Of a stretch of 64,000 nucleotides of DNA, positions 1-28,092 are shown piece by piece. Position numbers and translations under genes: made by a program. The notes beneath the pieces were generated by a model. It did no database searches, was not told the DNA's origin, and was given only the letters and a program-made list of their open reading frames with translations. Within the stretch, counting starts at the first letter, position 1. Each line of letters starts with the position of its first letter. Source of the DNA: Lachnospiraceae bacterium (GTDB lineage: Bacteria; Bacillota; Clostridia; Lachnospirales; Lachnospiraceae); NCBI GenBank assembly GCA_051888795.1, contig JBJFCD010000199.1, positions 12,509 to 76,508 on the forward strand, in the 5' to 3' direction.

Positions 1-70
1 CAAAAAATATTAAAAAAAATAGCGAAAAGAGTATTACGATTTTCTTAAATTTGTTTATAATTTATGCCAG

Positions 71-93: not shown

Positions 94-148
94 TTGGCAT
101 AATTAATCTGATGCATATTTATGGAGGATGAAAGGAAGGAATGAATGT

Positions 149-508: not shown

Positions 509-539
509 TTTGAATATAGATACAAAAAAGGGAACGGTT

Positions 540-2402
540 ATGACAGAACAGTTGAAAAAAAGAAGTGTCATTTATGGTGCAGGCGTATTGATATATGTCT
601 TTGGTGTAATTTTAACATTACAGTTTACTGTGTCAGATTGGACAAAGTTTTTTGTATTTCTTATAGCCTATCTTGTAATCAGCTTCGATGCATTTCGGGG
701 GTTGAGCGAAAGACTGATGCAGAAGAAATTCTTAACAGAATATACTTTGATCATTCTGGCTACAGTGGGAGCTTTTGGCATTGGAAAATATGTTGAAGGC
801 GTTTTTGTTATGATTTTATTTGAATTAGGTATGATTTTTGAAGCATTTGCTACGGATAATGCGAAGAGGACAATCGCAGAGATGATAGATATCCGTCCGG
901 CGTATGCGACTCGTAAGATCAAGGGAAAAGAGGTGCAGGTAGATCCTTCTGAACTGAAGCTGCGCCATATTATCGTTATCAAGCCAGGGGAGATAATTCC
1001 GGTGGATGCCATAGTCACAGCCGGGGTGACAACAATTGATACAAAAGCGCTGACAGGAGAAGCGATGCCTCAGACGGCGAGACCAGGCGATACAATTTAC
1101 AGTGGATGTATCAACCTGAGTGGTGTGATTGAAGCGAGAGTTACAAAACTATATGAAGATTCAACGGTCTCAAGGATCATGAAGATGGTAGAAGATGCCC
1201 AGCAGTTGAAAGCGGAAAGTGAAACATTTGTTGCAAGGTTTTCAAAAATATATACGCCGGTTATGCTTATCCTCGCTATTGTGGTAATGCTCTATCCGCC
1301 ACTTAGTTTTTCATACGGAAACTGGGATACATGGATTTATCGCGGACTTATCTTTATGATTGTGGCCTGCCCCAGCGGTTTGTCACTGTCCATACCGATT
1401 GCATTTTTAGGTGGGATTGCTTCGGCTGCCCGGCAGGGTATATTAATTAAAGGTGGAAACTATCTGGAAGATCTTTCTAAAGCAAATGTTTTTGTCTTTG
1501 ATAAGACAGGAACATTAACAGAAGGTGTTTTTCTGGTAAAAGAGATACATGCCGTCAGCGGAACAGAGGAAGAGATGTTAAAGATTGCTGCACATGCGGA
1601 GAGTTATTCCAACCATCCGATCGCACAGTCGCTATTAGAAGCATATGATGGAACGATTGACAGAGAAAAAGTATATAGAGTAAAAGAAATTCCAGGTTAT
1701 GGTATCAGCGCTACATATGAAGGACAGAGAGTCCATGTCGGAAATCGCAGGCTCATGGAAAGACAGAAGATAGATGTGGAAGAGGTAAATACTACGGGAT
1801 CAGTAGTATATGTAGCGGTTGGTAAAACTTATCTCGGATATATCATCATTTCAGATCAGATCAGAGAAGAAGCTTATGATGTGATGGATTATCTTCGTGA
1901 GAAATGTAACGGTGTTTTGGTTATGCTGACCGGAGACACTGAAAAAGCCGGTGTAGAAGTTGCCGATGAGCTGGGACTTGATTATGCGTATACAAACCTT
2001 ATGCCGATGGATAAGCTGGAGCAGCTGGAAGAATTTTTCTATATTCAGGATGATTCAGAAAGACTGGTCTGTGTAGGAGACGGAATCAATGATGCACCTG
2101 TACTTTCCAGAGCAGACATTGGTATCGCAATGGGTGACCTTGGCTCGGCAGCAGCAATCGAGGCAGCGGATATTGTGCTCATGAATGACGATCTTTCCAA
2201 AATAAAAGATGCTATCCGCATTGCAAAGGAAACACTTCATGTCGTAAGTCAGAATATTGCATTTGCTATGGTTGTAAAATTTCTGGTGCTTTTTATGGCG
2301 GTTATCGGATATTTCGGCATGTGGGAAGCAATTTTAGTGGAAGTAGGAGTTGTATTCGTTGCAATTTTAAATGCATCTGGCGTTGTAAAATTTACTGTGT
2401 AA
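540..2402 (+). CDS. Heavy-metal translocating P1B-type ATPase (CadA/ZntA-like, atypical CPS motif)
   Basis: TGE, CPS, DKTGT, HP and GDGINDAP motifs; downstream of ArsR; start at ATG 540. Confidence 0.9.
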   Translation: MTEQLKKRSVIYGAGVLIYVFGVILTLQFTVSDWTKFFVFLIAYLVISFDAFRGLSERLMQKKFLTEYTLIILATVGAFGIGKYVEGVFVMILFELGMIFEAFATDNAKRTIAEMIDIRPAYATRKIKGKEVQVDPSELKLRHIIVIKPGEIIPVDAIVTAGVTTIDTKALTGEAMPQTARPGDTIYSGCINLSGVIEARVTKLYEDSTVSRIMKMVEDAQQLKAESETFVARFSKIYTPVMLILAIVVMLYPPLSFSYGNWDTWIYRGLIFMIVACPSGLSLSIPIAFLGGIASAARQGILIKGGNYLEDLSKANVFVFDKTGTLTEGVFLVKEIHAVSGTEEEMLKIAAHAESYSNHPIAQSLLEAYDGTIDREKVYRVKEIPGYGISATYEGQRVHVGNRRLMERQKIDVEEVNTTGSVVYVAVGKTYLGYIIISDQIREEAYDVMDYLREKCNGVLVMLTGDTEKAGVEVADELGLDYAYTNLMPMDKLEQLEEFFYIQDDSERLVCVGDGINDAPVLSRADIGIAMGDLGSAAAIEAADIVLMNDDLSKIKDAIRIAKETLHVVSQNIAFAMVVKFLVLFMAVIGYFGMWEAILVEVGVVFVAILNASGVVKFTV

Positions 2403-2467
2403 ATAATAAAGAATAAAAAAGAAGCAATGGTATACATAAACAAGTAAAAACAGAGGAGACTAAACGA

Positions 2468-2992
2468 ATGAAACGATTTCGGATGACAGCGCTGATTTTT
2501 ATATTGGCGCTGAGTCTGTCTGGATGTATAACAAATCCATACAAATCAGGGGTAAAAGCATTAGAAAATGAAGATTATGAAGAAGCAGCCAAAAGCTTTT
2601 CTGAAGCTGTAGAAAAAGATAAGAATACAGCGGATGCGTACAGAGGTCTGGGGATTGCTCTGTGGGAAACAAAAGATTACGAGGGGGCAAGGGATGCTTT
2701 GGAAAAAGCATTACAGGCAGGAACTGAAAAGACTGGTACTATTTATAATCTTCTGGGAAATTGTGAGTTAAAACTTGGAAATGCGAAAGAGGCCGCCGGA
2801 TATTTTGAAACAGGGTTGGAAGATAAAGATTTAAGTAACGAACTTAGGCAGGAAATGCGTTTTAATACCATTGTCTCGTATGAACAAATGGGCGATGCGG
2901 AGACCGCAAAGTCGTTGCTTGAAGAATATATATCTGAATATCCGGATGATGAGGAAGCAGCGAAAGAGGCAGAATTTTTAGAAACGAGATAG
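2468..2992 (+). CDS. TPR-repeat lipoprotein
   Basis: Lipobox LSGC; TPR-like helices (ADAYRGLGIALW, IYNLLGNCELKLG). Confidence 0.8.
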   Translation: MKRFRMTALIFILALSLSGCITNPYKSGVKALENEDYEEAAKSFSEAVEKDKNTADAYRGLGIALWETKDYEGARDALEKALQAGTEKTGTIYNLLGNCELKLGNAKEAAGYFETGLEDKDLSNELRQEMRFNTIVSYEQMGDAETAKSLLEEYISEYPDDEEAAKEAEFLETR

Positions 2993-2995
2993 TAT

Positions 2996-4261
2996 ATGAT
3001 AGAATTAAGAAAAGAAACCGAAAGAGTGATTCTGGTAGGGGTCAGTCTTATGGACGCAGAGCAGACAGATAGGTCTTTAGATGAACTTTCAGAGCTTGCA
3101 AAAACAGCAGGTGCTGAAGCTGTGGGGAGAGTGATCCAAAGCAGAGAGCAGATCCATCCGGGTACTTATGTCGGAAAAGGTAAACTCGGGGAGATCAAAG
3201 ACCTTGTATGGGAGACGGAAGCAACAGGAATTATCTGTGATGATGAATTGACTCCTGTACAGATGAAGAATCTTCAGGATGAACTCGATGTGAAGGTGAT
3301 GGATCGTACTTTAGTGATACTGGATATTTTTGCGGAAAGAGCATCAACCAGTGAAGGAAAGATACAGGTAGAGCTGGCACAGCTCAAGTATCGCCAGACA
3401 AGGCTAACAGGTTTTGGTACAGCGCTGTCAAGGCTCGGTGGAGGAATCGGAACACGTGGTCCAGGTGAAAAAAAGCTCGAGATGGATCGAAGATTAATAA
3501 AAAACCGGATTGCGCAGTTGAACCGTGAACTCAAGGATGTAAAACGTCATCGTGAGATTACCAGGGAACAGAGGAGTAAGAAGAAACTTCCTGTAGTGGC
3601 AATAGTAGGTTACACAAACGCAGGAAAATCTACACTTTTAAATACATTGACAGGATCAGAAATCCTGGCTGAAGATAAATTGTTTGCAACACTTGACCCA
3701 ACCACAAGAGGATTAAAACTCCCGGGAGGTCAGGAGATTTTGCTGACAGATACAGTAGGATTCATTCAGAAACTGCCCCACCATTTGATTGAAGCGTTCA
3801 AAAGCACATTGGAAGAGGCGAAATATGCGGATATGATTCTTCATGTTGTGGATGCGTCAAATCCTCTGATGGATGAGCAGATGTTTACCGTCTATGAGAC
3901 ACTTCAGAATCTGGAAGTAGGAGATAAGCCGGTTATTACAGCATTCAACAAGCAGGATAAGCTGGAAGAGGCTTTGATTGTACGTGATTTCAGGGCTGAT
4001 TATACTGTGAAAATCTCTGCCAGAACCGGCAGAGGTATTGATGAACTTTTGGAAACGATTGAAGCAGTCCTGAGGGATCAGAAGATTGCAATAGAGTTTT
4101 TATATGATTACAAAGATGCAGCGAAGATACAGCTCATCCGTAGATATGGTGAGCTTACAGCCGAGGAATACCGGGATGATGGAATCTATGTCACCGGTTA
4201 TATCCCAGCAGAGTTTTATAGTAAAGTATCTCTTGGAGATTCTGAGAAAAAGCGTTTGTAA
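2996..4261 (+). CDS. hflX: GTPase HflX
   Basis: GGGIGTRGPGEKKLEMDRR, GYTNAGKST, LFATLDPTTR, DTVGFI, NKQD. Confidence 0.97.
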   Translation: MIELRKETERVILVGVSLMDAEQTDRSLDELSELAKTAGAEAVGRVIQSREQIHPGTYVGKGKLGEIKDLVWETEATGIICDDELTPVQMKNLQDELDVKVMDRTLVILDIFAERASTSEGKIQVELAQLKYRQTRLTGFGTALSRLGGGIGTRGPGEKKLEMDRRLIKNRIAQLNRELKDVKRHREITREQRSKKKLPVVAIVGYTNAGKSTLLNTLTGSEILAEDKLFATLDPTTRGLKLPGGQEILLTDTVGFIQKLPHHLIEAFKSTLEEAKYADMILHVVDASNPLMDEQMFTVYETLQNLEVGDKPVITAFNKQDKLEEALIVRDFRADYTVKISARTGRGIDELLETIEAVLRDQKIAIEFLYDYKDAAKIQLIRRYGELTAEEYRDDGIYVTGYIPAEFYSKVSLGDSEKKRL

Positions 4262-5052
4262 GCTCTGGAAAAAGTAGAATAGTCTTTATAGCCACAGTCA
4301 AAACAGGCTTGTGTGCTGGGAATTCCGGACAATATAAGTTCTTTAGCAAGCAGGAGACGTTTACGGGATATATAATTACCAAGTGTATAACCGGTTTCCT
4401 GCTTAAATTGTCTCATCATATAATATTTGCTGACAAAAAATGTGTCGGCAATTTTATCGATTTTCAGATCGTCAGTCAGATGGTCATTTACGTATTGTAA
4501 AATTTCTGTTACTTTGGAAGGATTGCTTTCAGTGTCTATAAATTCCAGATGATTTTTAAGCGCTGCCCTGTTTAAATGGACCATAAATTCCAAAAATAAA
4601 ACCTGACGATACAGTTCCGCTGCATAGCCTTCATCTGCAAATGACTTTTCAAGTCTTACGATAGAACGGAACAGAGAGCTTTTTTCCAGAGAAGGGATTC
4701 GAAGTACGTTAGAGCGTTCTTCTTTTGCTTTCTGAAAGCAGAAGCTCAGATCATAGGAATCTGTTCTGTAAGCGTTCATAAAATTCGGAGAAATATAGAC
4801 AATGATTCTTTCATATATTTCCCTGTTGTCTACCAGAAGACGGTGCATGTCATTATGCTTAACCAGCACAATATCATAAGGCTTCAGTTCATAGGATTTC
4901 CCTTCGATCATATAAGAAACTTTTCCTTTGATGAAAATTGTGATCTTATCGAAATCATGGTAATGTGTTTTTATTTCATGGGATTCTTTGTCAGTCAGGT
5001 GAAACAATTTGAATTCACTGTTTAAATATCCTTTTTTTTCGTATGATTCCAT
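4216..5052 (-). CDS. AraC family transcriptional regulator with N-terminal cupin domain
   Basis: HYHDF cupin motif; C-terminal double HTH (CGYKDYSTFSRAYKR); 3' end overlaps hflX 3' end. Confidence 0.92.
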   Translation of the reverse strand: MESYEKKGYLNSEFKLFHLTDKESHEIKTHYHDFDKITIFIKGKVSYMIEGKSYELKPYDIVLVKHNDMHRLLVDNREIYERIIVYISPNFMNAYRTDSYDLSFCFQKAKEERSNVLRIPSLEKSSLFRSIVRLEKSFADEGYAAELYRQVLFLEFMVHLNRAALKNHLEFIDTESNPSKVTEILQYVNDHLTDDLKIDKIADTFFVSKYYMMRQFKQETGYTLGNYISRKRLLLAKELILSGIPSTQACFDCGYKDYSTFSRAYKRFFSESPRDTLL

Positions 5053-5244
5053 GATGCCCTCCTGAGATAACCGGTTTGTTTTAAAATGTTAAGCTTTAAA
5101 ATGTTAAAGCAGCTTACTTCAAGTATGATAAAATAATTATAAAAAAACAGAGCATTATTTGCAATATATATGGCATTAATTGTATTGAAAAGGGAAATAA
5201 TGCCTGTTATGATTGCCTTAGATAAAGAAAGCGGAGGGTATGTT

Positions 5245-6102
5245 ATGAAGGTTGTTTTGGAAAGATATCATGGTTTAGGAAATGATTATGTTGTATTTGA
5301 TCCGAATAAAAATGAGCTTATGCTTACGCCGGGGAATGTTAAGATGATCTGTGACCGGAATGCCGGTCTTGGTTCGGATGGAGTTTTAGAAGGACCGATT
5401 TTAAAAGAAAACGGTATGTATGTTAAAGTATGGAATCCGGATGGCAGTATTTCAGAAACCAGCGGAAACGGTGTCCGCATCTTTGCAAAATATCTGAAAG
5501 ATGCAGGATATATTCAGAAAAAGAACTTCAAACTATTTACAGAAAACGGAGAAGTAGAGGTAACATTCCTGAATGAAGACGGAAGCAGACTCAGAGTTTC
5601 TATGGGTAAACTTTCTTTCTGGAGTGATGAGATTCCTGTAACAGGAGAGAGAAGAGAAGTAATTAATGAGGATATGGTGTTTGGAAGAACATTATATCCG
5701 GTAACATGTGTGACGATTGGAAATCCACATTGTGTTATTCCGATGAGAGAGATTTCAAAGCCTCTTGTTTGTAAAATAGGTGATTATGCAGAGATCGCGA
5801 GATATTTTCCGAATCGCGTAAATACGCAGATTATGAAAGTGATTGATAAAGAGAATATTGCAATTGAGATTTTTGAGCGTGGCGCAGGATATACTCTAGC
5901 TTCCGGAACAGGTGCCTGTGCAGCAGCAGGTGTTGCATATAAGCTTGGCATGACGAATAATAAAGTAATTGTTCACATGGCTGGCGGAAATCTTCAGGTA
6001 GAAGTGGAAGATGACTGGACTGTCTATATGACCGGAGATGTATTCTATGTAGCAAAACTTACGCTGAGTAATGAATTTGCAGAAAAACTGCGAAACGCAT
6101 AA
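5245..6102 (+). CDS. dapF: Diaminopimelate epimerase-like protein (both catalytic Cys replaced by Ser)
   Basis: YHGLGNDY, NPDGS..E.SGNG, GNPHCV, FP.RVN, ERGAG.TLASGTGACA; start at ATG 5245 after GGAGGG. Confidence 0.8.
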   Translation: MKVVLERYHGLGNDYVVFDPNKNELMLTPGNVKMICDRNAGLGSDGVLEGPILKENGMYVKVWNPDGSISETSGNGVRIFAKYLKDAGYIQKKNFKLFTENGEVEVTFLNEDGSRLRVSMGKLSFWSDEIPVTGERREVINEDMVFGRTLYPVTCVTIGNPHCVIPMREISKPLVCKIGDYAEIARYFPNRVNTQIMKVIDKENIAIEIFERGAGYTLASGTGACAAAGVAYKLGMTNNKVIVHMAGGNLQVEVEDDWTVYMTGDVFYVAKLTLSNEFAEKLRNA

Positions 6103-6165
6103 ATGTATAAATGGTTACAAGTTTATAAAGGGATATGATATACTAAGGCATAGGAGGAAAAACCT

Positions 6166-9100
6166 ATGCCTTTAAAATTTGTATTTGGACCATCGGGTTC
6201 AGGAAAATCACATTTTCTTTACAATTACATTATAGAAGTATCAGAAAAAAATCCGGATCAGAATTATATTATTCTTGTGCCGGAGCAGTTTACAATGCAG
6301 ACACAAAAAGATCTTGTCACGATGCATCCAAAACATGGGATCATGAATATTGATGTTCTGAGCTTCGGGCGTCTTGCTTATCGTGTCTTTGAGGAGACAG
6401 GAGGCGGCAATATACCGGTGCTGGATGATGAGGGAAAGAATCTGATACTGAGAAAGATTGCAGGAGACTATGAAGGAGAATTAAAGGTTCTCAAGGGCAA
6501 TATGAAAAAGCTCGGGTATATCAGTGAAGTGAAATCTGTAATCTCAGAATTTACCCAGTATGATATCGGACAGGAAGAGATAGAACGAGTAATGGAGATG
6601 GTTGGCAAAGAGTCGGGGCTCTACTACAAATTGAATGATTTAAAAATCCTGTATCGTGGATTTTCGGATTATCTTGAAAAAAAATATATTACTAAGGAAG
6701 AGCTTCTGGATGTTCTTGGAAGAGAAATAAAAAAGTCAGAGCTTTTAAAAAACAGTACTGTGGTATTGGACGGATTCACGGGATTTACACCGGTGCAGAA
6801 CAGGCTTTTAAAAGAACTTTTTATACATTGCCGTCAGGTAGTGGTAACCGTACTCATGGATGAAAGAGAAAATCCTTTCGTCTATAAACATCCCTATCAG
6901 CTTTTTGCATTAAGTAAACAGATGGTCACATCATTAACTGAAATTGCGAAAGAGACGGGAACTGTTCTTGAAGATGCAGAATATCTTTACGAAAATATTC
7001 CCTATCGTTTCAAAGAGAATCCGGCGCTTTCGTTTCTTGAGCATAATATTTTCCGATATGAAAAAGAAAGCTACGAATCCGAGCAGGATTCTATTTGTAT
7101 TCATGTGGCAAAAAATCCAAAAGAAGAAGCATTTGCCGTAGTCGGAGAAATTCGTGCTCTTGTGAGAAAAAGCGGATACCGGTATCGTGATATAGGACTG
7201 ATCGCAAGCAGTATGGATGCATATGGAGATTATCTGGAAGAGGCTTTTGAAAGTTACGGGATTCCAGTGTTTATGGACCACAAAAGGAGTATTCTTTTGA
7301 ATCCCTATGTAGAATATATCCGTAGTCTTCTGAATATGGTGGAACAGAATTTTACGTATGACAGTGTTTTCAGATTTCTTCATACGAATCTGTCGGGAAT
7401 TGCGTACGATGACGTTTGCTCTATGGAAAATTATGTTCTTGCTCTGGGGATAAAAGGATATAAAAAATGGCAGGAACGGTGGATTCGTCGCCCGCAGGAT
7501 ATGACGGAGGACGAGCTTGAAAACTTAAATCACTGTAGAGTAACATTTGTGGAAAAAATTGATGATCTGGTCTTTATTTTAAAACAGAGGAGAAAAACAG
7601 TCAGAGACATCACAGTAGCACTTTATGATTTTATTGTTAAGGAAGAATTTCAGTTAAAGCTAAAGCAGCAGGAAGAAGAGTTTCAGACCACAGGTGAACT
7701 TGCTCTTGCAAAAGAGTATGCGCAGATCTATCGAATACTGATAGAGTTGTTTGATAAATTTGTTGAGCTTCTGGGAGATGAACAGGTAGGGCTAAGTGAA
7801 TATTGCAAGCTATTGGATGCAGGTCTTTCGGAGGCAAGAGTCGGTGTGATTCCGCCCAGTGTGGATCAGGTAGTAGCCGGTGATGTTCAGAGGACCAGGC
7901 TGAAGGATATCAAAGTGCTGTTTTTTATCGGAGCAAATGACGTATATTTGCCGGGAACACTTCTTCGAACGGGGCTTTTGTCAGAGAGAGACCGGGAGAA
8001 ATTCCGAAAGGAAAAGCTTGCGCTTGCCCCAGGGGGAAAAGAACAGGCATACATTCAGAAGTTTTACCTTTATATGAATCTTACTAAGCCATCGGAATAT
8101 CTTCATGTGTATTACAGCAAGGTATCCTCAGATGGGAAAAGCATGCGCCCGGCATATCTGCTCCAGGAACTTCGGAAACTGTATCCGGCAATTCAGGTAA
8201 CGGATGAAGAAGAAAAGACATTATATCAGAGGGAACTGACTGAAAAAATGGGTATCAGTGAACTCGTTAAAATGGTACGTGACGATGATTGGAAAGAATT
8301 ATATTCCTGGTATCTGAAGCAGCCGGATTGGAAAGAAAAGGTAGAGAATCTTATTAAGGCGGGATACTATCGTCGTCCCATGGATGGTATGACAGAGAAT
8401 GTAGCAAGACGTCTATATGGCGAGGATTTCATGAATAGTATTACGAGAATGGAAAGATTTTCAGCCTGTGCTTTTGCGCATTTTCTTACGTATGGTCTGG
8501 GACTCAAGGAGCAGCCGGAATATGAATTCAAACCGGTAGATCTTGGAAATGTATGTCACAGAGCACTGGAGAGATATTCTGAAAAAATAGAAAAAGAAGA
8601 GCTGTCATGGACTGAAGTGCCGGAAGAAATGCAGAATCGCTGCATTGATGAGAGTGTGGATGAGGCAATTACCGATTATGGCAATAGTGTTCTTTACAGT
8701 TCTGCGCGCAGTGAGTACATGATTGTGAGGATAAAGCAGATGCTGAGACGTACAGTGTGGGCTCTGACAAAACAGTTGGCGGCAGGAGATTTTATACCAT
8801 CAGCATATGAGCTTCGCTTTGCAAGTGGAAAGATTGATCGTATTGATACTTGTGTGGATGAGGACAAGGTCTATGTAAAAGTTACAGATTATAAGACGGG
8901 AAGCAAGGAATTTGACGTTGTATCTTTGTATTATGGTCTTCAGTTGCAGCTTATGGTATATATGGATGCTGCGGTTAAGATTCAGGAAAAAAAGAATCCG
9001 GATAAGGAAGTGATTCCGGCCGGTGTATTTTATTATCGCATACAGGATCCCTTTGTGGAAAAACCGGAAAAAGAGCAGGGGGAAAAGGCAATTTCTGACG

Positions 9101-14098: not shown

Positions 14099-14815
14099 AT
14101 GTTGAATATTGTGATTTTTGATGATAATGAGAATGATATAAACATTACATACGATATTATTAATAAATATTTAAAAGATAAAAATAAAGCGGCGGAGATC
14201 CATACGTTTACCGGAAAAGAAGAGGTAATGAATTATATCAAAGAAGTAAGGACAGATGTTATTTTTTTGGATATTCTTGTGGATGATGAGGCTGTGGGAA
14301 TTGAGATGGCAAAGGAGATCAATAGCTTATCAGAGCATACATATATTGTGTTTTTGACAGGATTTCTTCATTATGCAACGGATATTTATGATACAAGACA
14401 TATCTATTATGTATTAAAGCCTGAGCTTACGCAGAGGCTTCCGGGAGTGTTTTCAAAAATTGAAAAAATCATGGATTCAGAAAATACCGGCATTTTTCAT
14501 GTAAAAAAAGGTGTCAATGATCTGATACTGGAAAAGAAAAAAATCAGTTATATAGAAAGGGATCGCAGAATCAGCATTATTCATTATGATGGTCAGACGT
14601 ATTCCGTGAATTATAAGATATCTGATCTTGTGGAAATGCTTGCGCATTCTGATTTTGTAAGATGTCATAATAGCTATATAGTAAATTTGCAGTACGTATC
14701 AAGGCTGGAGAGAAGATTTGTTTTATTAAAGGACGGAACACAGGTGCCAATCAGCAGATCGCGAAATGAGGAAGTAAAAAATCAATTTTTAGAATGGCTG
14801 CAAAAATATATGTAA
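14099..14815 (+). CDS. LytTR family response regulator (AgrA/VirR-like)
   Basis: Receiver DD, FLDI, FLTG, LKP intact; LytTR domain FVRCHNSYIVN..VPISRSR. Confidence 0.95.
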   Translation: MLNIVIFDDNENDINITYDIINKYLKDKNKAAEIHTFTGKEEVMNYIKEVRTDVIFLDILVDDEAVGIEMAKEINSLSEHTYIVFLTGFLHYATDIYDTRHIYYVLKPELTQRLPGVFSKIEKIMDSENTGIFHVKKGVNDLILEKKKISYIERDRRISIIHYDGQTYSVNYKISDLVEMLAHSDFVRCHNSYIVNLQYVSRLERRFVLLKDGTQVPISRSRNEEVKNQFLEWLQKYM

Positions 14816-14827
14816 TGGAGTAAGAAC

Positions 14828-15559
14828 ATGGGTGTTACGATTTGTCTGACTTTGGCAGGAATAGCATTGTTTATGATTGTTTATATAAAGATGCTTCAAA
14901 GAGAAAACAGGAATCTTATTTTACAGGAAAATCTCATAAGGGAGCATTATAGTACACTGGAATATCAAATTGAGCAAACGAGAAGAGTCAGACATGATAT
15001 TGCAAATCATATTTATACAATTGAGCAGCTTATGAAACAAAGCGAAGAAAAAGATACTTTGGCAAACAATTATAAAAATGATCTGGAAAAAACTTATCTG
15101 GTACTTCAGCAAAAAACGTTCTGTGAGGAAATACTCATTGATTCTGCGATCAAGAATAAACTCAGAGAATGCCAGCAAAAGCAGATTAAGACAGACTGTC
15201 AGGTGGAAAAATTGTCTATTGGTGATATTGAAAGAATTGATATGCTTGGGCTCATATATAATGTCTTTGATAATGCAATAGAAGCCTGTGAAAAAGTTGA
15301 GACAAATCGCAGATGGATTAGAGTAACGATAAAAAATGATGGAGCAAAGTTGTTTTTTTTATGCCATAACTCGAAAAATCCAAATTTTTCTCTGAAAGAT
15401 GGACAAAAAACTACAAAAAAGGATCAGGAAAATCATGGAATCGGAAAAGATATCATGAGAAGCATTGTAAAGAAATATCATGGAAGCATTCACGCAGAAG
15501 ATGGAAAAGAGGAATATAAACTGGAAATTGTGTGTAGGTGTAAGGATGAAAAAGTGTAG
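14828..15559 (+). CDS. GHKL histidine kinase (AgrC-type catalytic core) with only one TM helix
   Basis: H-box RHDIANH, N-box NVFDNAIEA, G-box TTK..NHGIG; only about 20 N-terminal hydrophobic residues. Confidence 0.9.
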   Translation: MGVTICLTLAGIALFMIVYIKMLQRENRNLILQENLIREHYSTLEYQIEQTRRVRHDIANHIYTIEQLMKQSEEKDTLANNYKNDLEKTYLVLQQKTFCEEILIDSAIKNKLRECQQKQIKTDCQVEKLSIGDIERIDMLGLIYNVFDNAIEACEKVETNRRWIRVTIKNDGAKLFFLCHNSKNPNFSLKDGQKTTKKDQENHGIGKDIMRSIVKKYHGSIHAEDGKEEYKLEIVCRCKDEKV

Positions 15560-15585: not shown

Positions 15586-16890
15586 ATGTTTGAAAGTGAT
15601 ATTACATGGATAGAGGCACTGTCACAGCTGTCTCTTACAGTCCCTGTTTATTTTCTTATGAAAAAAACAGTGGGATGTAAAAAAATATGGAAACAAATCC
15701 CATCCTGGTTTCTGCCTGCAATTCTTTATACACTCTGGAATATATATAACGTAATTGTTATTCGTTACCCTCAAATTCTTACAGATATTATATCGGAACA
15801 ATTGGCATATGAACTGCGGGCAGTCTGTGGGATTATATTAATGTTTGTAATTTTGCCAATGATTTATGAAGGAAGGACTCTTGAACGATATTTTTTCTGT
15901 TCATTATTAGAAATCATCTCTCTCTTTAGTGGATTGTTCAGATATGTGTGTATGATGTTATTTAAAATCAGCGGTTTATACTATGTAATGGAAAAAATGG
16001 TTTTTCTTCTTTTGCTTTTCCGTTTGTTCATTGAATGTGCCCCTTATTTTTTTTGCTATTACGTTTTCGAAAAGAATTTTGGAGATTATCGTGTCCTTGT
16101 AAATAAGCACAAAATAGCGTGTAGCGTACTGACAGTAATCATTATTTGTATGGAATCAGGCACTGCTTTTTTTTGCGTGGAAAGAAATTTTCTGGATATC
16201 TGGCGAGGAATTGGGGGAATGGCGTATCTGTTTTTCGTAATTGGAACAGTAATATTTATGTTAAAAAAAGATAATAGACAAATTTATCGGCAGAAGCAGT
16301 TGCTGGAAAATCATTATCAATCCATAAGGAACCAGGAAGAACAGGTAGTGAGCATGCAGTCGGAGATTGGCGAGCTTCTTAAGGCTGCAGAGAAACTTGA
16401 AAAAGAGAAAAAATACAGTGAAGAAGAGTTAAAACACTATGGAGAAGAGTTAAAGAAGTTACACAGTAAACTAAGGCGTGTAGATTACTGTGATAACCTT
16501 ATGCTGGATGCGGTGTTACATAATAAAGAAAAGGAATGTGAAGAGAAAAATATAAAGCTGGATATAAGAATGCAGGATATAAGCTTTGGGGGAGTTTCAG
16601 ATGTAGATATCTTTGAAGTTGTATATGGAATGCTTGAAGTTGCCATAGATCTAGTTGAGATGCAGGAAGATAAAGCTTTGAAGACTATTGTGATCAGCGG
16701 AAAGAATCTGGCAGGGCAAGTGGTGATAGAGGTGTCAATTCCATCTATTGCCTCTAAAAATGGAAAAGTCTTGAGGAAAAGCAGGAATCAATATAAAAGG
16801 CTGAAACGAAAAGCAAAAGTGCTGAGAGGACAGAGTGTTATATGCACTGATAAAGATTATCAGAAGATTGTTTTGGGAATTCCGTGTTGA
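15586..16890 (+). CDS. Multi-TM AgrC-like pseudo-histidine kinase, paralog 1
   Basis: Hydrophobic N-terminal half; LLENHYQSI coiled coil, YCDNLMLDAVLHNKEKEC; no RHD H-box, no N-box Asn, no HGxG. Confidence 0.75.
   Translation: MFESDITWIEALSQLSLTVPVYFLMKKTVGCKKIWKQIPSWFLPAILYTLWNIYNVIVIRYPQILTDIISEQLAYELRAVCGIILMFVILPMIYEGRTLERYFFCSLLEIISLFSGLFRYVCMMLFKISGLYYVMEKMVFLLLLFRLFIECAPYFFCYYVFEKNFGDYRVLVNKHKIACSVLTVIIICMESGTAFFCVERNFLDIWRGIGGMAYLFFVIGTVIFMLKKDNRQIYRQKQLLENHYQSIRNQEEQVVSMQSEIGELLKAAEKLEKEKKYSEEELKHYGEELKKLHSKLRRVDYCDNLMLDAVLHNKEKECEEKNIKLDIRMQDISFGGVSDVDIFEVVYGMLEVAIDLVEMQEDKALKTIVISGKNLAGQVVIEVSIPSIASKNGKVLRKSRNQYKRLKRKAKVLRGQSVICTDKDYQKIVLGIPC
16333..16747 (+). repeat. Direct repeat copy 1 (415 bp, identical by eye to 17712-18126 and 19056-19470)
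   Basis: Line-by-line visual comparison; offset 1379 to copy 2. Confidence 0.9.
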
Positions 16891-16961
16891 TAATTTGAAT
16901 ATTTATGTGATTCAATGTTAACTGAAGAGGAGATGTAAAAGGTGCAGGAGGGTTGTTTGGA

Positions 16962-18284
16962 ATGTTAAGTCAGCCTGATACGAAACTATTAGAAGCACTG
17001 GCACAGGTATTTCTTGTAGTCCCGCTTGTGTTTACAACAGAAAAGACAGTTGGATATAGAAAAATATGGAATCATATACCAACTTGGTTTCTGGCAGGAT
17101 TTATATATTCTATTTGGAATATATATAATGCATTGGTATTATATTATCCCAGGTATATTACAAAAATGATTACGGAAGAGGCTATGCATTTAAGTTGGGC
17201 ACTTGGTGGATTGGTAATGATGTTTGTGATATTGCCCTCCCTTTATAAAGGAACGATAATTGAACGGTATTTTGTCTTTTTTGTATTTGCTTTGACAGAT
17301 TTTTTTGCCAGACTTTTCAGGATGCTTGGTATGGTGATTTTGGAAAAATTCGGATTGTGGTATGTCATACAGAAAGATTGGTTTTTCTTGCTTTTTATTC
17401 GTTTGGTTTTGCAGTCTGGACCATATTTTTTGTTTTATTTCATTTTTAGAAAACAATTTGCAAAATATCATGATTGGGTCATAAAGCATAAAAAATTATG
17501 CAGTGCAGCAACGATATTAGTTGTTGGACTGGAAATCTCGACAGCACTTATGTCAATAGATGCAGAACATTTAGAAAAGCTAAGGTTATTCATAAATCCG
17601 GCAGTTTTGTTTGGAACATTTATGGGGGCAATTTATTTTTTGAAAAGAGAAAATCGTCAAGTTTATCTACAGAAACAACTGCTGGAAAATCATTATCAAT
17701 CCATAAAGAGTCAGGAAGAACAGGTAGTGAGCATGCAGTCGGAGATTGGCGAGCTTCTTAAGGCTGCAGAGAAACTTGAAAAAGAGAAAAAATACAGTGA
17801 AGAAGAGTTAAAACACTATGGAGAAGAGTTAAAGAAGTTACACAGTAAACTAAGGCGTGTAGATTACTGTGATAACCTTATGCTGGATGCGGTGTTACAT
17901 AATAAAGAAAAGGAATGTGAAGAGAAAAATATAAAGCTGGATATAAGAATGCAGGATATAAGCTTTGGGGGAGTTTCAGATGTAGATATCTTTGAAGTTG
18001 TATATGGAATGCTTGAAGTTGCCATAGATCTAGTTGAGATGCAGGAAGATAAAGCTTTGAAGACTATTGTGATCAGCGGAAAGAATCTGGCAGGGCAAGT
18101 GGTGATAGAGGTGTCAATTCCATCTAATACTCATATAAGTGGGAAAGACATAAAGGAAAGCAGGAATCAATATAAGAGGCTGAAACGAAAAGTAAAAGTG
18201 CTGAGAGGACAATGTATACGGAAGATAGAAGGAGAAACGGAAAAGATTGTTGTGGGCATAATGTGCGGCAGTGCAGGCAGATAG
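16962..18284 (+). CDS. Multi-TM AgrC-like pseudo-histidine kinase, paralog 2
   Basis: Same architecture as paralog 1; ATG 16962 after GGAGGG (ORF track starts at TTG 16953). Confidence 0.75.
   Translation: MLSQPDTKLLEALAQVFLVVPLVFTTEKTVGYRKIWNHIPTWFLAGFIYSIWNIYNALVLYYPRYITKMITEEAMHLSWALGGLVMMFVILPSLYKGTIIERYFVFFVFALTDFFARLFRMLGMVILEKFGLWYVIQKDWFFLLFIRLVLQSGPYFLFYFIFRKQFAKYHDWVIKHKKLCSAATILVVGLEISTALMSIDAEHLEKLRLFINPAVLFGTFMGAIYFLKRENRQVYLQKQLLENHYQSIKSQEEQVVSMQSEIGELLKAAEKLEKEKKYSEEELKHYGEELKKLHSKLRRVDYCDNLMLDAVLHNKEKECEEKNIKLDIRMQDISFGGVSDVDIFEVVYGMLEVAIDLVEMQEDKALKTIVISGKNLAGQVVIEVSIPSNTHISGKDIKESRNQYKRLKRKVKVLRGQCIRKIEGETEKIVVGIMCGSAGR
17662..18253 (+). repeat. Direct repeat copy 2 (592 bp, identical by eye to 19006-19597)
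   Basis: Visual comparison; constant offset 1344; translations identical. Confidence 0.9.
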
Positions 18285-18308
18285 TATATGCGAGGGAGAA
18301 TAAGGAAG

Positions 18309-19688
18309 ATGTTCGAGAGTGATGTTACGTGGATAGAAACAATAATAAGATTATCCGCTGTAGTTCCTTTTTGTTTTTTTACCGAAAAATCAGTAGGTTA
18401 CCGAAAAATATGGAAACGGATGCCATCATGGCTTCCGACATCAATTCTTTACTTTATATGGAGTATATATAATGAGTTAATCTTGTCTTATCCGCAGTTT
18501 GTTTGTAATTTTGTCTCAGAGACAGTAGCATATAAAATCTGGGCGGTCGGTGGACTAATGTTAATGTTAGTGATTTTTCCATGGTTTTATAAAGGTTCAA
18601 TCATAGAGAAATATTTTGTTTGTTTTGTGATAGAAGTGATTTCAATTTTTTGTTATCTTTGCAGAGGCGTCGGCATGCTTTTTGTTAAAAGCATTAGATT
18701 GTATAATATTTTTGAAAAAACTGTTTTTTCATTATTTTTTTTACGATTGGTTTTAGAATATATGCCGTGTTTTCTATGCTATTTTATTTTTAAAAAACAG
18801 TTTAAAAATTACCATACTTATGTTTGGAAACATAAAAAGGTATGTTGTGTGGCAGCAATATTTACTGTCGGAGCAGAGACAGTTACTGCGCTTGTTACGA
18901 TAAGTAAAGATTTCTTAGAAAACTGGAGAGCGATCGCAAACCCTATTATCCTTTTTGGAGCAATTGGAATTACAATTTATCTGTTAAAAAGAGAGAATGA
19001 AAGGATTTATCTACAGAAACAACTGCTGGAAAATCATTATCAATCCATAAAGAGTCAGGAAGAACAGGTAGTGAGCATGCAGTCGGAGATTGGCGAGCTT
19101 CTTAAGGCTGCAGAGAAACTTGAAAAAGAGAAAAAATACAGTGAAGAAGAGTTAAAACACTATGGAGAAGAGTTAAAGAAGTTACACAGTAAACTAAGGC
19201 GTGTAGATTACTGTGATAACCTTATGCTGGATGCGGTGTTACATAATAAAGAAAAGGAATGTGAAGAGAAAAATATAAAGCTGGATATAAGAATGCAGGA
19301 TATAAGCTTTGGGGGAGTTTCAGATGTAGATATCTTTGAAGTTGTATATGGAATGCTTGAAGTTGCCATAGATCTAGTTGAGATGCAGGAAGATAAAGCT
19401 TTGAAGACTATTGTGATCAGCGGAAAGAATCTGGCAGGGCAAGTGGTGATAGAGGTGTCAATTCCATCTAATACTCATATAAGTGGGAAAGACATAAAGG
19501 AAAGCAGGAATCAATATAAGAGGCTGAAACGAAAAGTAAAAGTGCTGAGAGGACAATGTATACGGAAGATAGAAGGAGAAACGGAAAAGATTGTTGTTGG
19601 ACTTACATGTTTTTGTGGAAATTATGAGCAAAATGAGGATGATTATGATAAAATGGTCAGTAAAGGAACAGCTTGTGATAAACGCTAG
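18309..19688 (+). CDS. Multi-TM AgrC-like pseudo-histidine kinase, paralog 3
   Basis: Same architecture; MFESD start at 18309 matches paralog 1 (ORF track starts at 18288). Confidence 0.75.
   Translation: MFESDVTWIETIIRLSAVVPFCFFTEKSVGYRKIWKRMPSWLPTSILYFIWSIYNELILSYPQFVCNFVSETVAYKIWAVGGLMLMLVIFPWFYKGSIIEKYFVCFVIEVISIFCYLCRGVGMLFVKSIRLYNIFEKTVFSLFFLRLVLEYMPCFLCYFIFKKQFKNYHTYVWKHKKVCCVAAIFTVGAETVTALVTISKDFLENWRAIANPIILFGAIGITIYLLKRENERIYLQKQLLENHYQSIKSQEEQVVSMQSEIGELLKAAEKLEKEKKYSEEELKHYGEELKKLHSKLRRVDYCDNLMLDAVLHNKEKECEEKNIKLDIRMQDISFGGVSDVDIFEVVYGMLEVAIDLVEMQEDKALKTIVISGKNLAGQVVIEVSIPSNTHISGKDIKESRNQYKRLKRKVKVLRGQCIRKIEGETEKIVVGLTCFCGNYEQNEDDYDKMVSKGTACDKR
19006..19597 (+). repeat. Direct repeat copy 3
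   Basis: Matches 17662-18253. Confidence 0.9.
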
Positions 19689-19717: not shown

Positions 19718-21127
19718 ATGCAGTATATTTCAAAAGGATATTTTATGTGGGTGACATTATTCATACCACTGTATTTTGAAAATGCATATTTTAATATGCT
19801 TCAGGCAAAAGGGCATATTTATATTGTTGGCGCGGCGCTTTATTTGTTAAGCATTGCTTTTTTGTGTGTGATAAAAAAGAGTGTGAAGGATTGTCTCCCT
19901 GGTAAGAGCGTGTTAGACTGGAGCGTTTTTCTCCTGGGGATTACAGCGCTTCTTTCCTGCCTGTTGTCGGAAGATATGAAGGCTTCTTTTTGGGGCAGTA
20001 ATGGATGGTGGGTTGGAGCATTTGTGTTTTTGACTTTTGCCCTTTTTTATCAGGTTCTATCTAAAAATCTGCAATTAAATCAGAATATATGGCTTCCGGT
20101 GTTGATCGTAAATATGTTTATTTTTGTCATGGGAATATTGCATTCTGCACGAATTGATGTTTTATCTTTGCATGAAAATATATATCCAAAGCAGTATTAC
20201 TGGTATATATCTACAATTGGAAATACGAATTGGTATGTAGGGTATCTTTGTCTTATAATTCCTTTGGTACTTGTATTTTACCTTGAATGTGAGGATGTGT
20301 TTTCACGGAGAATCTATTTTGTGTTTCTGGCGTTAGCATGTATCAATATTGTGTTATGTGGGAGCGACGGAATTTATTTGGGATTTGGGATCTGCGCTTT
20401 TTTTTCTATTCCGTATATTGTTGCTGAGGAAAAAAGAGTGTGCAGAATGTTCGAAGTACTTATCTGTTATGGAGGCGGATTACTGCTTGTAAGGTTCTGC
20501 CCGGTCTTTGCGGGGAAGTTGGCTGATATAGAAGGATTGTCAAAAATATTTCTCAGACCTGCATTTTCAATTACGCTTGTTCTTGTATCGTTATGCGGAA
20601 GGATTCTTGCAAAAAAAAGATGGGGAAAACTGGATAAAAAATGTAAGAATGCAGTAACTGCTATCTTGGAAATGATGCTAGGTGTCTGTGCAGCGGTTTT
20701 CCTTTTTCGGGCAATTTGTAATTTTGGAGAAAGTTGGGGAACAAACCGAGGAAGAACATGGAAATATTGTGCAGAGTTATTTCAGACGTTTTCTGTAAAG
20801 CAAAAGTTGTTTGGAGTTGGTCCGGAGATGCTGAAAACATATTTTGAAGAGCTTTCGACACATTTTTCCAGACAGATCCTTGTAGCCCACAGTGAACTGA
20901 TGCAGCTTCTAATGACAATAGGGGTGCTGGGATTGTTATGCTGGCTCTTAATGTGGGGAAGCGTTGTAGGCAGTTATTTTAAAAATAAAATCTGGAAAAA
21001 AGGAAACATTGCATTTTTACTGCCACTAATTGCTTATCTGGGACAGTCACTGGTGAACAGTCCGCAGACTACAAATGTGGCGCTGCTATGTGTTCTTATG
21101 GCGTGTTACAGAAAAAGTGAAATATAG
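19718..21127 (+). CDS. O-antigen ligase / O-oligosaccharyltransferase-like membrane protein (Wzy_C type)
   Basis: About 12 TM helices; STIGNTNW, GTNRGRTW, FGVGP, AHSELMQLLMTIG motifs typical of the family. Confidence 0.7.
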   Translation: MQYISKGYFMWVTLFIPLYFENAYFNMLQAKGHIYIVGAALYLLSIAFLCVIKKSVKDCLPGKSVLDWSVFLLGITALLSCLLSEDMKASFWGSNGWWVGAFVFLTFALFYQVLSKNLQLNQNIWLPVLIVNMFIFVMGILHSARIDVLSLHENIYPKQYYWYISTIGNTNWYVGYLCLIIPLVLVFYLECEDVFSRRIYFVFLALACINIVLCGSDGIYLGFGICAFFSIPYIVAEEKRVCRMFEVLICYGGGLLLVRFCPVFAGKLADIEGLSKIFLRPAFSITLVLVSLCGRILAKKRWGKLDKKCKNAVTAILEMMLGVCAAVFLFRAICNFGESWGTNRGRTWKYCAELFQTFSVKQKLFGVGPEMLKTYFEELSTHFSRQILVAHSELMQLLMTIGVLGLLCWLLMWGSVVGSYFKNKIWKKGNIAFLLPLIAYLGQSLVNSPQTTNVALLCVLMACYRKSEI

Positions 21128-21186
21128 AGCCAGATTAGTGGGGAACACGTTTGGAATTTTATATAAATAAAAATCAGATAATTATG

Positions 21187-21217
21187 TCGGGGTGGATTTT
21201 GTCCACCTCGATTTTTT
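21187..21217 (+). terminator. Type-A hairpin, probable intrinsic terminator
   Basis: TCGGGGTGGA-TTTTG-TCCACCTCGA followed by a T-run. Confidence 0.7.
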
Positions 21218-21224: not shown

Positions 21225-21294
21225 GTGCAAATTGTGACAAAAATGAGGTTGATTTTGCAGGAGTGATCAGTAATGAAATATTTTGTGATAAACT
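21225..21294 (+). promoter_or_regulatory. Promoter P1: putative LytTR direct repeat plus extended -10
   Basis: CAAATTGTG-12-TTGATTTTG, 31 bp gap, then TGA-TAAACT. Confidence 0.65.
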
Positions 21295-27000: not shown

Positions 27001-28092
27001 TCTGATGAAACAGAAAATCCGATTATGTTGGCAAATGTTAGTGATTTCTCAGGAATTAGTGGATGTACATTATTTATTGATGATATTGAAATGATTAATA
27101 ATGAAAATTATAAGGAATATTATGACGAATCTCTTGGATTGATTGAATATAAAGTAAATGAACCTTTAGAAGAAGGGAAACATACGGCTTCTATTTCGTT
27201 TATAGATTCAACTGGAAATGGCATGAGCAAGCCTGTAACAATTGAATGGACTGTAGATGTGGAGAAACCGGAAATTTCAGAAATAGAGATTCCCAATAGT
27301 ATAGGTGATGAAGAAAAATTTACAATTTCTGTTAATGTTAATGATGATAATTTAAAACATGTGTATGTAAGAATTATGGATGATGCTGATTCTGCTATTT
27401 ATGAAATGGAAAAAGGTGATGACGGATGGTATGTAATAATTAATAGTGGCAATCTAAATAAAAAAGTAGAAGTTGTAATTATTGCTGTAGATGAAGCTGG
27501 AAATAAAACGGAAAGTAAACCAAAAGAAATAATAATTAATAAGAAAGATGATAAAACTTCTAATAGTGTAAAATTAACGAAAATTAAGCTTTCTGGTCTT
27601 TCGAAACAAATTGCAGCAGGCAAAAAAATTAAACTGACGGCAAGTGTTCTTCCGTCTAACGCAACAAATAAAGCTATAACATGGAAATCCAGTAATACGA
27701 AGGTTGCTACAGTTACTCAGTCAGGTGTTGTTACGATGAAGAAAGGATCCGGCGGCAAATCGGTTACGATCACAGCAACGGCAAAAGATGGAAGTGGTGT
27801 AAAAGCAACTTACAAGATTAAATCCATGAAAGGAGTTGTAAAAAAGGTTTCCATTTCCGGAAGCAAGTCTGTAAAAGCAGGAAAATCATTGAAATTAAAG
27901 GCGAAAGTGACAGCTACAAAGAGTGCGAATAAGAAACTGAAGTGGACAAGTAGCAATACAAAGTATGCTAAGGTAAGCAATTCCGGAAAAGTGACAACAT
28001 ATAAGGCGGGAAAAGGAAAGAAAGTTAAGATTACTGCAATGGCGACGGATGGAAGCGGAAAGAAAAAGACTGTGACGATTAAGATTAAATAA
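24055..28092 (+). CDS. Secreted/surface protein B: DUF6273-like domain, unknown central region, Ig-like domains, two C-terminal Big_2
   Basis: Signal peptide; EFGSYP..EPIQWYVI..WEECPMRTWLN..GVRPA; Big_2 tail; ATG 24055 after GAGGTG. Confidence 0.75.
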   Translation: MRKQNKLCALLLIVALMVSSLTTYASETTESYINENEGEKVDEIEEPVFTESDDENVILSDVEEVHLSDKKIVEFGSYPKSKVNDAEVINVLNSKTVDSDGNIEYNGDIYLKIEDGVYYVWEPIQWYVIDTRGEESTLLSKNLIDGRSMGTGFYASSWEECPMRTWLNEDFYSIAFSDEEKKGIRAVDLENDRGNSTTDKIWFLQYTDYSNNMYGFYGNSDRVCESTDYAKYKGNFYYFTRSTFTFVVSFWRGYISGTGALVSQLTGQESYGVRPAVCVDNSVLDGSTKEKEPENGNILCFTSLVNKITRNADGDITVPVEVSLTDGTEAPDNLQIIAYVNHDKKSEKRLKVKNGVIQIPLYAGEWSEGDNELSFQCTVEGYSVEDKDSTVNIHTKELSYKETLDMDLSFKFDGKLASILGLGIGATTGTVMEIDNDDGDITLSMQNTAEVNGKATTGITVQSDELKAFKSGVSSTKNLSGTNTTTMTIENFDPDLSKDEQMGAIGCFMLKGISDKIGDVTSSELDKLYYDMYGTRITSLETEKESLKFTLDVNENSTASGKLGDSSYSLTTAGAKITFSNSINKDLSSGNVTYGTSAGQKDGGILIKGDWLFGVGSVIYESSKNASSHEIQVQTNGGEVQGVSVKGETNTSDKISATSVKTTNSSKVSFKDDAAKSIVNDSDDLKNLINLKKRLFSQTDIKNAYNSLWESDYIGEYKKNKSYESGIELYVDGDVPNTKGQGIELSYSGTKKYDFEVGQGVLYKGNYYDVIDNSDNFPDGKTWNLGYSAPAMLALGVDGLSDFLNDVILYEIGKVSDGVKSNAASVWGNIKNGWNATIASVQSPLLSTKSSKSMNVLSVDEDSLEEKNSGMNTVTIGDAYSVRIYTDESQTIELTTEELLSNEPIYLSLEYTEEDIQNLGLTEEEMDKIAIFYWDVEKKLYRRLNDSEIDIDTKKVTARVIGNGEYILAVDTDEPIVTSFEVSDETENPIMLANVSDFSGISGCTLFIDDIEMINNENYKEYYDESLGLIEYKVNEPLEEGKHTASISFIDSTGNGMSKPVTIEWTVDVEKPEISEIEIPNSIGDEEKFTISVNVNDDNLKHVYVRIMDDADSAIYEMEKGDDGWYVIINSGNLNKKVEVVIIAVDEAGNKTESKPKEIIINKKDDKTSNSVKLTKIKLSGLSKQIAAGKKIKLTASVLPSNATNKAITWKSSNTKVATVTQSGVVTMKKGSGGKSVTITATAKDGSGVKATYKIKSMKGVVKKVSISGSKSVKAGKSLKLKAKVTATKSANKKLKWTSSNTKYAKVSNSGKVTTYKAGKGKKVKITAMATDGSGKKKTVTIKIK
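27677..28087 (+). repeat. 411-bp direct repeat identical by eye to 37344-37754 (Big_2 anchor); similarity continues through the terminator and promoter to about 28220
   Basis: Visual comparison; offset 9667. Confidence 0.9.

Follow-up and report, generated by a model that had tools for sequence, protein, structure and literature searches.

A tandem array of three sensor pseudokinases with diverged membrane heads and DNA-identical cytoplasmic modules in a Lachnospiraceae genome

The operon and its three tandem genes

The genome of an uncultured Lachnospiraceae bacterium of gut type (GenBank assembly GCA_051888795.1) contains three tandem genes, here called g1, g2 and g3, that join strongly diverged membrane domains to cytoplasmic domains that are identical over hundreds of base pairs. 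The genes lie in a stretch of 64,000 bp of contig JBJFCD010000199.1 (positions 12,509 to 76,508, forward strand), referred to here as the window, and they follow genes for a LytTR-type response regulator and a short histidine kinase. The cytoplasmic domains resemble this kinase, lack its catalytic residues, and appear to have been made alike by recombination. The regulator, the kinase and the parts of the array are located in the window as follows (aa, amino acids; a head is the variable membrane half of a protein).

14099..14815, + strand: LytTR-type response regulator, 238 aa, first gene of the operon (Pfam Response_reg 1.1e-9, LytTR 2.1e-18)
14828..15559, + strand: short catalytic histidine kinase, 243 aa (Pfam HATPase_c_5 6.7e-17)
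15586..16890, + strand: g1, sensor pseudokinase 1, 434 aa; head orthologous to the single-copy genes P0004 and P0007
15586..16282, + strand: variable membrane head of g1, about 6-7 helices (hydropathy; synonymous divergence)
16333..16747, + strand: 415-bp tract, g1 copy, identical in all three genes
16748..16890, + strand: g1-specific 3' tail, mosaic in comparison with g2 and g3
16953..18284, + strand: g2, sensor pseudokinase 2, 443 aa; head groups with P0003; AGGAGG ribosome-binding site before a TTG start
16953..17661, + strand: variable membrane head of g2 (all-helical AlphaFold2 head model)
17662..18253, + strand: 592-bp tract, g2 copy, identical to g3; 415-bp core at 17712-18126
18288..19688, + strand: g3, sensor pseudokinase 3, 466 aa; C-terminal extension common only to P0004
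18288..19005, + strand: variable membrane head of g3 (alignment, identity, synonymous divergence)
19006..19597, + strand: 592-bp tract, g3 copy, identical to g2; 415-bp core at 19056-19470

Open reading frame (ORF) analysis finds the three genes intact and in tandem on the + strand, and the peptides quoted in the original prediction, which was made from the letters of the window, are present in the three ORFs. The g3 reading frame is unbroken from either 18288 or 18309, of which the ATG at 18309 is the more likely start. The public gene call for g3 begins at an internal GTG and comprises 279 aa only (P0005), so that a third full-length head is hidden in the existing annotation.

Identical tracts between diverged genes

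The longest exact run shared by g1 with either g2 or g3 in a MAFFT alignment is 415 bp (16333-16747 = 17712-18126 = 19056-19470). It codes for a hairpin of the DHp type without its histidine and for the first two thirds of a degenerate GHKL domain. Between g2 and g3 the exact run extends to 592 bp (17662-18253 = 19006-19597), in agreement with BLAST against the whole assembly. When the alignment columns were shuffled 2000 times, the longest run never exceeded 50 bp. Both lengths, synonymous sites included, had been predicted, and they were reproduced exactly with their coordinates. These identities are read from the assembly alone, a scaffolded short-read metagenome-assembled genome (MAG) of 295 contigs with 90.5% completeness, an N50 of 32 kb and 22 gaps, each of exactly 100 N, in which the window lies on a contig of 114 kb.

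The 5' halves of the genes are homologous and heavily diverged, as had also been predicted, with 38-76% identity in 50-nt windows and 39-45% identity as protein. The g2/g3 tract begins at residue 237 of g2 (between KRENRQ and VYLQKQ), about 7 residues past the last hydrophobic helix (212-230), which places the boundary at the junction of the membrane domain and the cytoplasmic helix, where the original prediction had put it. In g1 the identity starts later, as there are 8 mismatches to g2 and g3 in the 44 nt preceding the 415-bp core. Beyond the core, about 12 differences fall in the first 35 nt of the g1 tail and 2 in the following 55 nt or so, after which the sequence is unrelated. A spacer of 62 nt separates tail 1 from head 2.

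Conflicting histories of heads and bodies

Substitutions per synonymous (dS) and nonsynonymous (dN) site were estimated by the Nei-Gojobori method on a codon alignment, separately for each half as the original prediction had proposed. Between paralogs the heads have dS of 1.24-2.68, which is saturated. The g1 head has dS of 1.2-1.8 to its paralogs and 0.92 to P0004, and its dN/dS to P0004 of about 0.2 (0.193/0.92) indicates that the heads are under purifying selection and are not decaying. In the shared body dS ranges from 0 to 0.058. Over about 120 synonymous sites g2 and g3 do not differ at all, and every difference behind the value of 0.058 for g1 against g2 and g3 is at the left edge. The g1 tail again differs from those of g2 and g3, with dS of 0.5-0.6. 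Comparison of the window genes with orthologues of other organisms gives body dS from 0.92 to saturation. The body is thus under no nucleotide-level constraint, and selection cannot account for the identity of the three copies.

The heads and bodies also give different trees. The head tree unites g1 with P0004 and P0007 (support 100/100) and g2 with P0003 (99/98), the latter pair having g3 as its sister (100/98). A clade of the three heads is rejected by the approximately unbiased (AU) test, with a log-likelihood difference of 68.8 and p = 1.9e-84. In the body tree g1, g2 and g3 form one clade (87/93), adjoining P0004 and P0007, and the groupings seen in the heads are rejected (p = 0.022 and 0.0047). 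The bodies of g2 and g3 therefore belong to the lineage of g1 and P0004 and their heads do not, which is the signature of recombination or gene conversion limited to the cytoplasmic module. The nested tract lengths, 592 and 415 bp, point to at least two such events.

Together these sequence comparisons support recombination or gene conversion in the cytoplasmic half, instead of selection or a recent duplication of whole genes, as the likely origin of the identity of the three bodies. The original prediction had spoken of ongoing gene conversion. The conversion itself is borne out by the dS values, the discordance of the trees and the AU tests; that it is ongoing, and that heads are swapped as cassettes, would be extrapolations from one genome with at least two nested events.

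The shared body is a pseudokinase

It had been supposed that the constant half is a working signalling body. This did not hold, as its H-box His, N-box Asn and G box have been lost and the kinase is the separate 243-aa gene. The short kinase has one N-terminal membrane helix and intact H (RVRHDIANH), N (FDNAIE) and G (HGIG) boxes. In g1-g3 the H box reads SMQSEIGEL (His to Ser), the N box reads LEVAID (Asn to Val) and the G box is absent. No histidine kinase family of Pfam or NCBIfam matches g1-g3, and the constant module alone has no match to HATPase_c_5 or HATPase_c even at E <= 10. Its relationship to the adjacent kinase is nevertheless recovered by BLASTP (4e-20, 25% identity over 161 aa, almost gap-free). 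The only conserved His residues near the H-box position are in the motifs LLENHY and LHNK, both of which are also found in the live kinase or in canonical relatives. The loss of the H, N and G boxes is common to all eight family members, which indicates an old pseudokinase family instead of recent decay. Since Ser occupies the H-box position, any phospho-accepting His must come from the short kinase.

An AlphaFold2 model of g2, with a predicted local distance difference test score (pLDDT) of 70, has about 7 membrane helices, after which a long helix runs on into a helical hairpin, and an alpha/beta domain. Foldseek matches the model to DesKC (3e-6), to the cytoplasmic part of AgrC (6e95, 7e-6) and to the AgrC ATP-binding domain (4bxi, TMt 0.74). 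The predicted body is thus a DHp hairpin and a GHKL fold behind a polytopic membrane domain, a layout of the AgrC type. The head of g2 modelled by itself is all-helical (pLDDT 77; predicted template modelling score, pTM, 0.71), and in Foldseek this model has no PDB match with E below 0.4. A hidden Markov model (HMM) of the head recovered close family members only, among 148 representative proteins. The count of about 6-7 helices is compatible with a membrane domain of the AgrC type, and by analogy the heads may be sensors.

The pairing of a short live kinase and a dead polytopic protein extends beyond this family. Among the best 150 cluster representatives retrieved with the family profile, 47 are long polytopic proteins without H, N and G boxes, 40 are long and canonical, and canonical short kinases account for many of the entries of about 240-250 aa.

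Relatives and copy number

The pseudokinase family is very rare. A word-based search of 5.8 billion clustered proteins gave 9 matches, a search of 1.84 billion representatives gave 4 clusters at E<1e-30, and a scan of genome contigs from 185,579 species found the family in one genome (G001). No JGI metagenome contig matched the family patterns or an exact 46-nt piece of the constant tract, and the exact g2 protein was not on record in a protein look-up. Searches of 400 Lachnospiraceae genera, in which at most 4 candidates were scored per genome and tandem arrays could not be counted, gave few matches, all distant. Two distant pseudokinases are located on contigs of about 2 kb.

Where the genes around them can be seen, relatives have one copy. 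Exactly one polytopic pseudokinase follows a LytTR regulator and a short HATPase_c_5 kinase at L016, L017, L019 (in G001), L032-35 and the more distant L036-38, and the short kinases of these loci have about 228-247 aa. In all, the module of regulator, short kinase and pseudokinase is found in six loci of relatives or paralogs. P0007 (L018) is also single-copy; its contig ends just upstream, outside view of a regulator or kinase.

A second, distantly related copy of the module is present in the source genome itself, on contig C142 at about 23.5-25.6 kb (L005, L006). It comprises a LytTR regulator, a live kinase of 242 aa (RRYRHDLAKH, LLDNAREA, HGIG) and one polytopic His-less partner of 440 aa, and it supports the view that the architecture is recurrent. 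At the locus of P0021 (L036-L038), the short kinase is separated from the pseudokinase by three small genes (101, 128 and 140 aa), and a gene for a Ser/Thr kinase of the Hanks type follows. These are possible additional partners or signals.

Two relatives allow the locus to be compared with its surroundings. L017 is collinear with the window (AddA 88%, PdaC-like protein 85%, regulator 80%, kinase 82%). In G001, a Lachnospiraceae MAG of the same genus, AddA is followed directly by the regulator, the kinase, one pseudokinase (L019), and then by genes that are found at 47-53 kb in the window. When window positions 13162-47000 were compared, the PdaC-like gene, the Wzy-like gene downstream of the array and about 26-27 kb of surface-protein genes were absent from G001. 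Its flanking proteins have 76-96% aa identity (AddA 92%), the regulator and kinase 72% and the pseudokinase about 50%. As the two-component genes are far more diverged than their flanks, the locus lies in a hypervariable island.

The single gene of L017 combines a head of the g1 type (69% aa identity) with a tail of the g3 type (62% identity, versus 47% to the tail of g1). Its C-terminal extension, CLGVNYDQNEVDYDK against CFCGNYEQNEDDYDK, is common only to g3, and tblastx aligns the L017 gene to window positions 19389-19664 with 65% identity over 92 aa. Judged by sequence, head 1 with tail 3 is the product expected of a crossover between the repeats; in effect, the 5' part of the ancestral gene would now be in g1 and its 3' part in g3. 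Either L017 arose by a crossover of g1 with g3 in the constant module, with deletion of the middle, or the lineage of the window gained, by insertion through the constant module, the segment that runs from tail 1 by way of head 2, a body, tail 2 and head 3 to a further body. Under either history, recombination in the constant module would have changed the number of heads, and the direction of the change is a matter of inference. Comparison with relatives, which are single-copy, thus speaks for the original suggestion that recombination between the repeats alters receptor number.

Comparison with known systems

The closest experimental precedent for a live kinase with a kinase-like sensor partner is the FasBCA system of group A Streptococcus. 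Of FasB, the DHp and kinase domains suffice and the membrane part is dispensable (PMC12675982). FasC needs only its membrane and DHp parts, including an essential His246, and its kinase domain is dispensable, so that its authors propose a pseudokinase; FasB and FasC heterodimerise, and FasA is a ComE-like regulator (PMC12675982). As in Fas, two kinds of genes resembling those of histidine kinases, for a catalytic and a sensor partner, are here co-transcribed with a regulator of the LytTR/ComE type, and as far as the genes themselves tell, the division of labour is hard-wired in the sequences. The systems also differ. FasC keeps His246 where g1-g3 have Ser, FasB has six membrane helices and the short kinase here has one, and Fas has one sensor partner whereas there are three here with DNA-identical docking modules.

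In group A Streptococcus, RocA is listed as an accessory partner of CovS (PMC12675982), and in Pseudomonas aeruginosa RetS binds the DHp domain of GacS (PMC8498467). In these pairs a kinase-like membrane protein modulates a true kinase through direct contact, as the contact proposed here would. RetS and RocA are, however, single-copy, encoded elsewhere in the genome and unrelated in sequence to the g1-g3 family, and RetS inhibits its kinase instead of serving as its sensor.

Variable sensor halves on a conserved cytoplasmic half, with the switch at the membrane junction, are well known from the HPK10-type receptors AgrC, ComD and BlpH, which work with LytTR regulators and whose hypervariable polytopic sensor halves define the agr groups of staphylococci and the ComD/BlpH pherotypes of streptococci (reviewed in PMC10482373). 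The three proteins of the window have the same division, with the change at the same place. Unlike them, the agr variants are alleles across strains, linked to variable AgrB/AgrD or peptide genes, and AgrC is a live kinase. Here one genome carries the variants as tandem genes, their body is that of a dead kinase, and no AgrB gene, nor any peptide gene in a search that was not exhaustive for small ORFs, was found next to them.

Gene conversion and concerted evolution of bacterial paralogs are known for tufA and tufB, for rRNA operons and for the babA/babB chimeras of Helicobacter. Identity tracts that include synonymous sites, diverged flanks, conflicting trees of tract and flank, and recombination between direct repeats are features common to those cases and to this one. 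The difference is that here the tract matches a domain boundary of a signalling protein and leaves the input domain untouched. To our knowledge, no such conversion has been described in two-component sensor paralogs, and our literature searches found none.

Gene conversion in tandem paralogs, variable-sensor/constant-kinase polymorphism of the agr type, and kinase/pseudokinase pairs such as FasBC and RetS-GacS are thus already known. Undescribed in the literature that we searched is their combination: diverged tandem heads, a DNA-identical dead-kinase adaptor, a live kinase without a sensor, and evidence for change in head number. The searches found no paper that joins pseudokinase, histidine kinase and LytTR, or AgrC and gene conversion.

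A model for the array

How might three diverged heads come to share one body, and what would the body be for? We consider it probable that this is one operon in which dead-kinase bodies, homogenised by recombination, dock three heads onto one live kinase. The operon would comprise the LytTR regulator, a small single-helix kinase without a sensor domain, and three tandem sensor pseudokinases, each with a polytopic head of about 235 residues fused to a histidine kinase-shaped body without the phospho-acceptor His and the N and G boxes for ATP binding. The heads would come from anciently separated lineages of a rare Lachnospiraceae family, and the bodies would have been made identical recently by homologous recombination of the RecA type among the tandem copies, in at least two nested events that left the 592-bp tract in g2 and g3 and the 415-bp core shared with g1. 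The tracts may end where the short stretches of identity needed by RecA-type recombination run out, the heads being only about 55-60% identical, and crossovers in the repeats would delete or add whole head units.

The identical body would then serve as a docking module, by which every head is coupled to the single live kinase through DHp-DHp pairing, in the manner of FasC and FasB. Each head might modulate the autophosphorylation of the short kinase on its own His, from which the phosphate would pass to the LytTR regulator, and three different inputs would in this way drive one regulator. The juxtamembrane helices of the body and the short kinase are strikingly alike (LKRENRQVYLQKQLLENHYQS versus LQRENRNLILQENLIREHYST), which is only a hint of heterodimerisation. 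Four parts of the model are inferred: that the partners heterodimerise, that the heads act as sensors, in which direction and when recombination took place, and which genes the regulon comprises.

More tentatively, the array may be a plug-in receptor bank, with one catalytic kinase, dead DHp-GHKL adaptors that recombination keeps compatible, and heads that are gained, lost or captured without rewiring. If so, it would represent a cassette principle for signal input, heads from other lineages included, that is undescribed in two-component systems. It is not settled in two-component signalling how bacteria can equip a pathway with new inputs and avoid cross-talk, and this locus is a candidate natural example. 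Should the docking model hold, recombination of the adaptor would be a simple genetic route by which sensory inputs are expanded, contracted or exchanged, and the array would offer a ready-made scaffold for the engineering of chimeric sensors. The locus would also widen the kinase/pseudokinase principle, recently proposed for FasBC, to a larger group that has no name (the 47 of the best 150 clusters described above).

Several observations weigh against this explanation. The bodies have no H-box His, unlike FasC, so the phosphoryl route cannot be the same as that of FasBC. By head HMM and Foldseek the heads have no detectable similarity to AgrC or to any solved sensor, and no ligand or peptide gene is evident in a search that was not exhaustive for small peptide ORFs. 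A second strain of the same species was not found in the protein and contig collections, so the array is known from one genome only. The groups compared in the AU tests were chosen after the trees were seen. Finally, the assembler of a short-read MAG may have flattened small differences inside the repeat, and an identity of 100% could be about 99%.

Alternative explanations

Could the bodies be identical for reasons other than recombination among the copies? Selection on nucleotides, for example for an RNA or DNA element within the gene, or purifying selection of great strength at the protein level might have this effect, and the body is indeed the more conserved half across the family (53-78% aa identity, versus 30-69% for the head). 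Given the dS of 0.9 to saturation between orthologous bodies and the complete lack of synonymous differences between g2 and g3, we regard it as extremely improbable. A recent triplication of the whole gene, followed by targeted hypermutation of the heads (e.g. by a diversity-generating retroelement) or by programmed DNA shuffling, would suit the sharpness of the variable/constant boundary, but it has hardly any likelihood when head dS is saturated, heads 1 and 2 are each nearer to genes of other organisms than to their neighbours, and substitutions are of all kinds instead of adenine-specific. Each copy is, moreover, a complete ORF on the same strand with its own ribosome-binding site. Shufflons, invertible cassettes and diversity-generating retroelements were rejected in that inverted repeats of at least 40 nt are absent from 12-24 kb, a recombinase or reverse transcriptase not having been searched for window-wide. 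An artefact, in which the assembler collapsed or bubble-popped the repeat and the true copies are less alike or differ in number or order, is suggested by the fragmented state and gaps of the MAG, by the presence of one other repeat only (>=250 bp, >=97%) in the assembly, and by the length of 592 bp, which is close to the limit of paired-end resolution. Against it, the junctions of short kinase and head 1, of tail 1, spacer and head 2, of tail 2 and head 3, and of tail 3 and the Wzy-like gene are unique and cannot be invented by an assembler, so the path needs at least three heads in tandem. The assembler also retained the differences at the tract edges, BLAST against the assembly turned up no stray copy of the module, whether on another contig or at a contig end, and a collapse could hide only a few single-nucleotide differences and would leave the contrast with dS >1 unaffected. 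An artefact of this kind is therefore quite improbable, and the chaining of alleles from three strains by the assembler is contradicted by the unique tail-to-head junctions.

A more substantial alternative is that the heads are alternative alleles on a near-invariant body, comparable to the agr groups, and that unequal or Campbell-type recombination between strains, by way of this body, assembled them into an array only recently. The identity would then reflect recent common ancestry of the bodies and not repeated homogenisation. The variability of the island is in keeping with this, as G001 has the nearer flanks and yet the more diverged two-component genes, while L017 has the more distant flanks and the closer two-component genes; so too are the single copies of all relatives and the union of head 1 with tail 3 in L017. 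On the other hand, the nested tracts (592 bp in g2/g3, 415 bp with g1), the 8 mismatches at the left edge of g1 and the mosaic tail of g1 fit several events with different end points, and no strain of the same species with a single alternative head was found. The g2 head goes together with P0003, and since the body of P0003 has an identity of only 65%, at least one replacement of a body is still required. We therefore think it unlikely that stacked alleles explain the array, and favour recombination among the tandem copies.

Downstream genes and other features of the window

The array is followed by a further membrane protein gene, a terminator and the first of a set of repeated boxes.

19718..21127, + strand: membrane protein resembling Wzy_C/O-antigen ligases, final gene ahead of the terminator (Pfam Wzy_C 5.7e-7, which misses the curated cut-off)
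21186..21212, + strand: sole terminator-like hairpin downstream of the operon that has a full T tail
21226..21248, + strand: first of four TGCAAATTGTGRCAAAAATGAGG boxes, in front of surface-protein genes

No full terminator was found between 14099 and 21186, and a weaker match to the terminator-like consensus is present inside g1 (15814-15830). The Wzy_C-like gene, which is absent from the syntenic L017, thus appears to be co-transcribed with the sensor array. The genes adjacent to the operon core are PdaC-like and Wzy_C-like, not AgrB. The closest NCBIfam families of the regulator are BtsR, LytR and AgrA. The sequence TGCAAATTGTGRCAAAAATGAGG occurs four times (at 21226, 28155, 29586 and 37825) where 0 are expected, upstream of genes for large Big_2 surface proteins, and does not occur before the regulator operon itself. 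The boxes are probably targets of the LytTR regulator, which would then probably switch on the downstream surface-protein genes.

Elsewhere in the source genome (G000), a 7.1-kb repeat occurs at 1-7155 and 32227-39377 of contig C177 (41 kb); its copies are 98.8% identical and recur with a period of 32,226 bp. The pattern resembles a circular plasmid or phage of about 32 kb whose assembly ran more than once around the circle, with strain variation. Within the window, another long direct repeat (27568-27867 and 37235-37534, 9667 bp apart, 93% identity over 300 nt) corresponds to the 3' ends of two surface-protein genes, and recombination between the ends of paralogous genes may be a general feature of the island.

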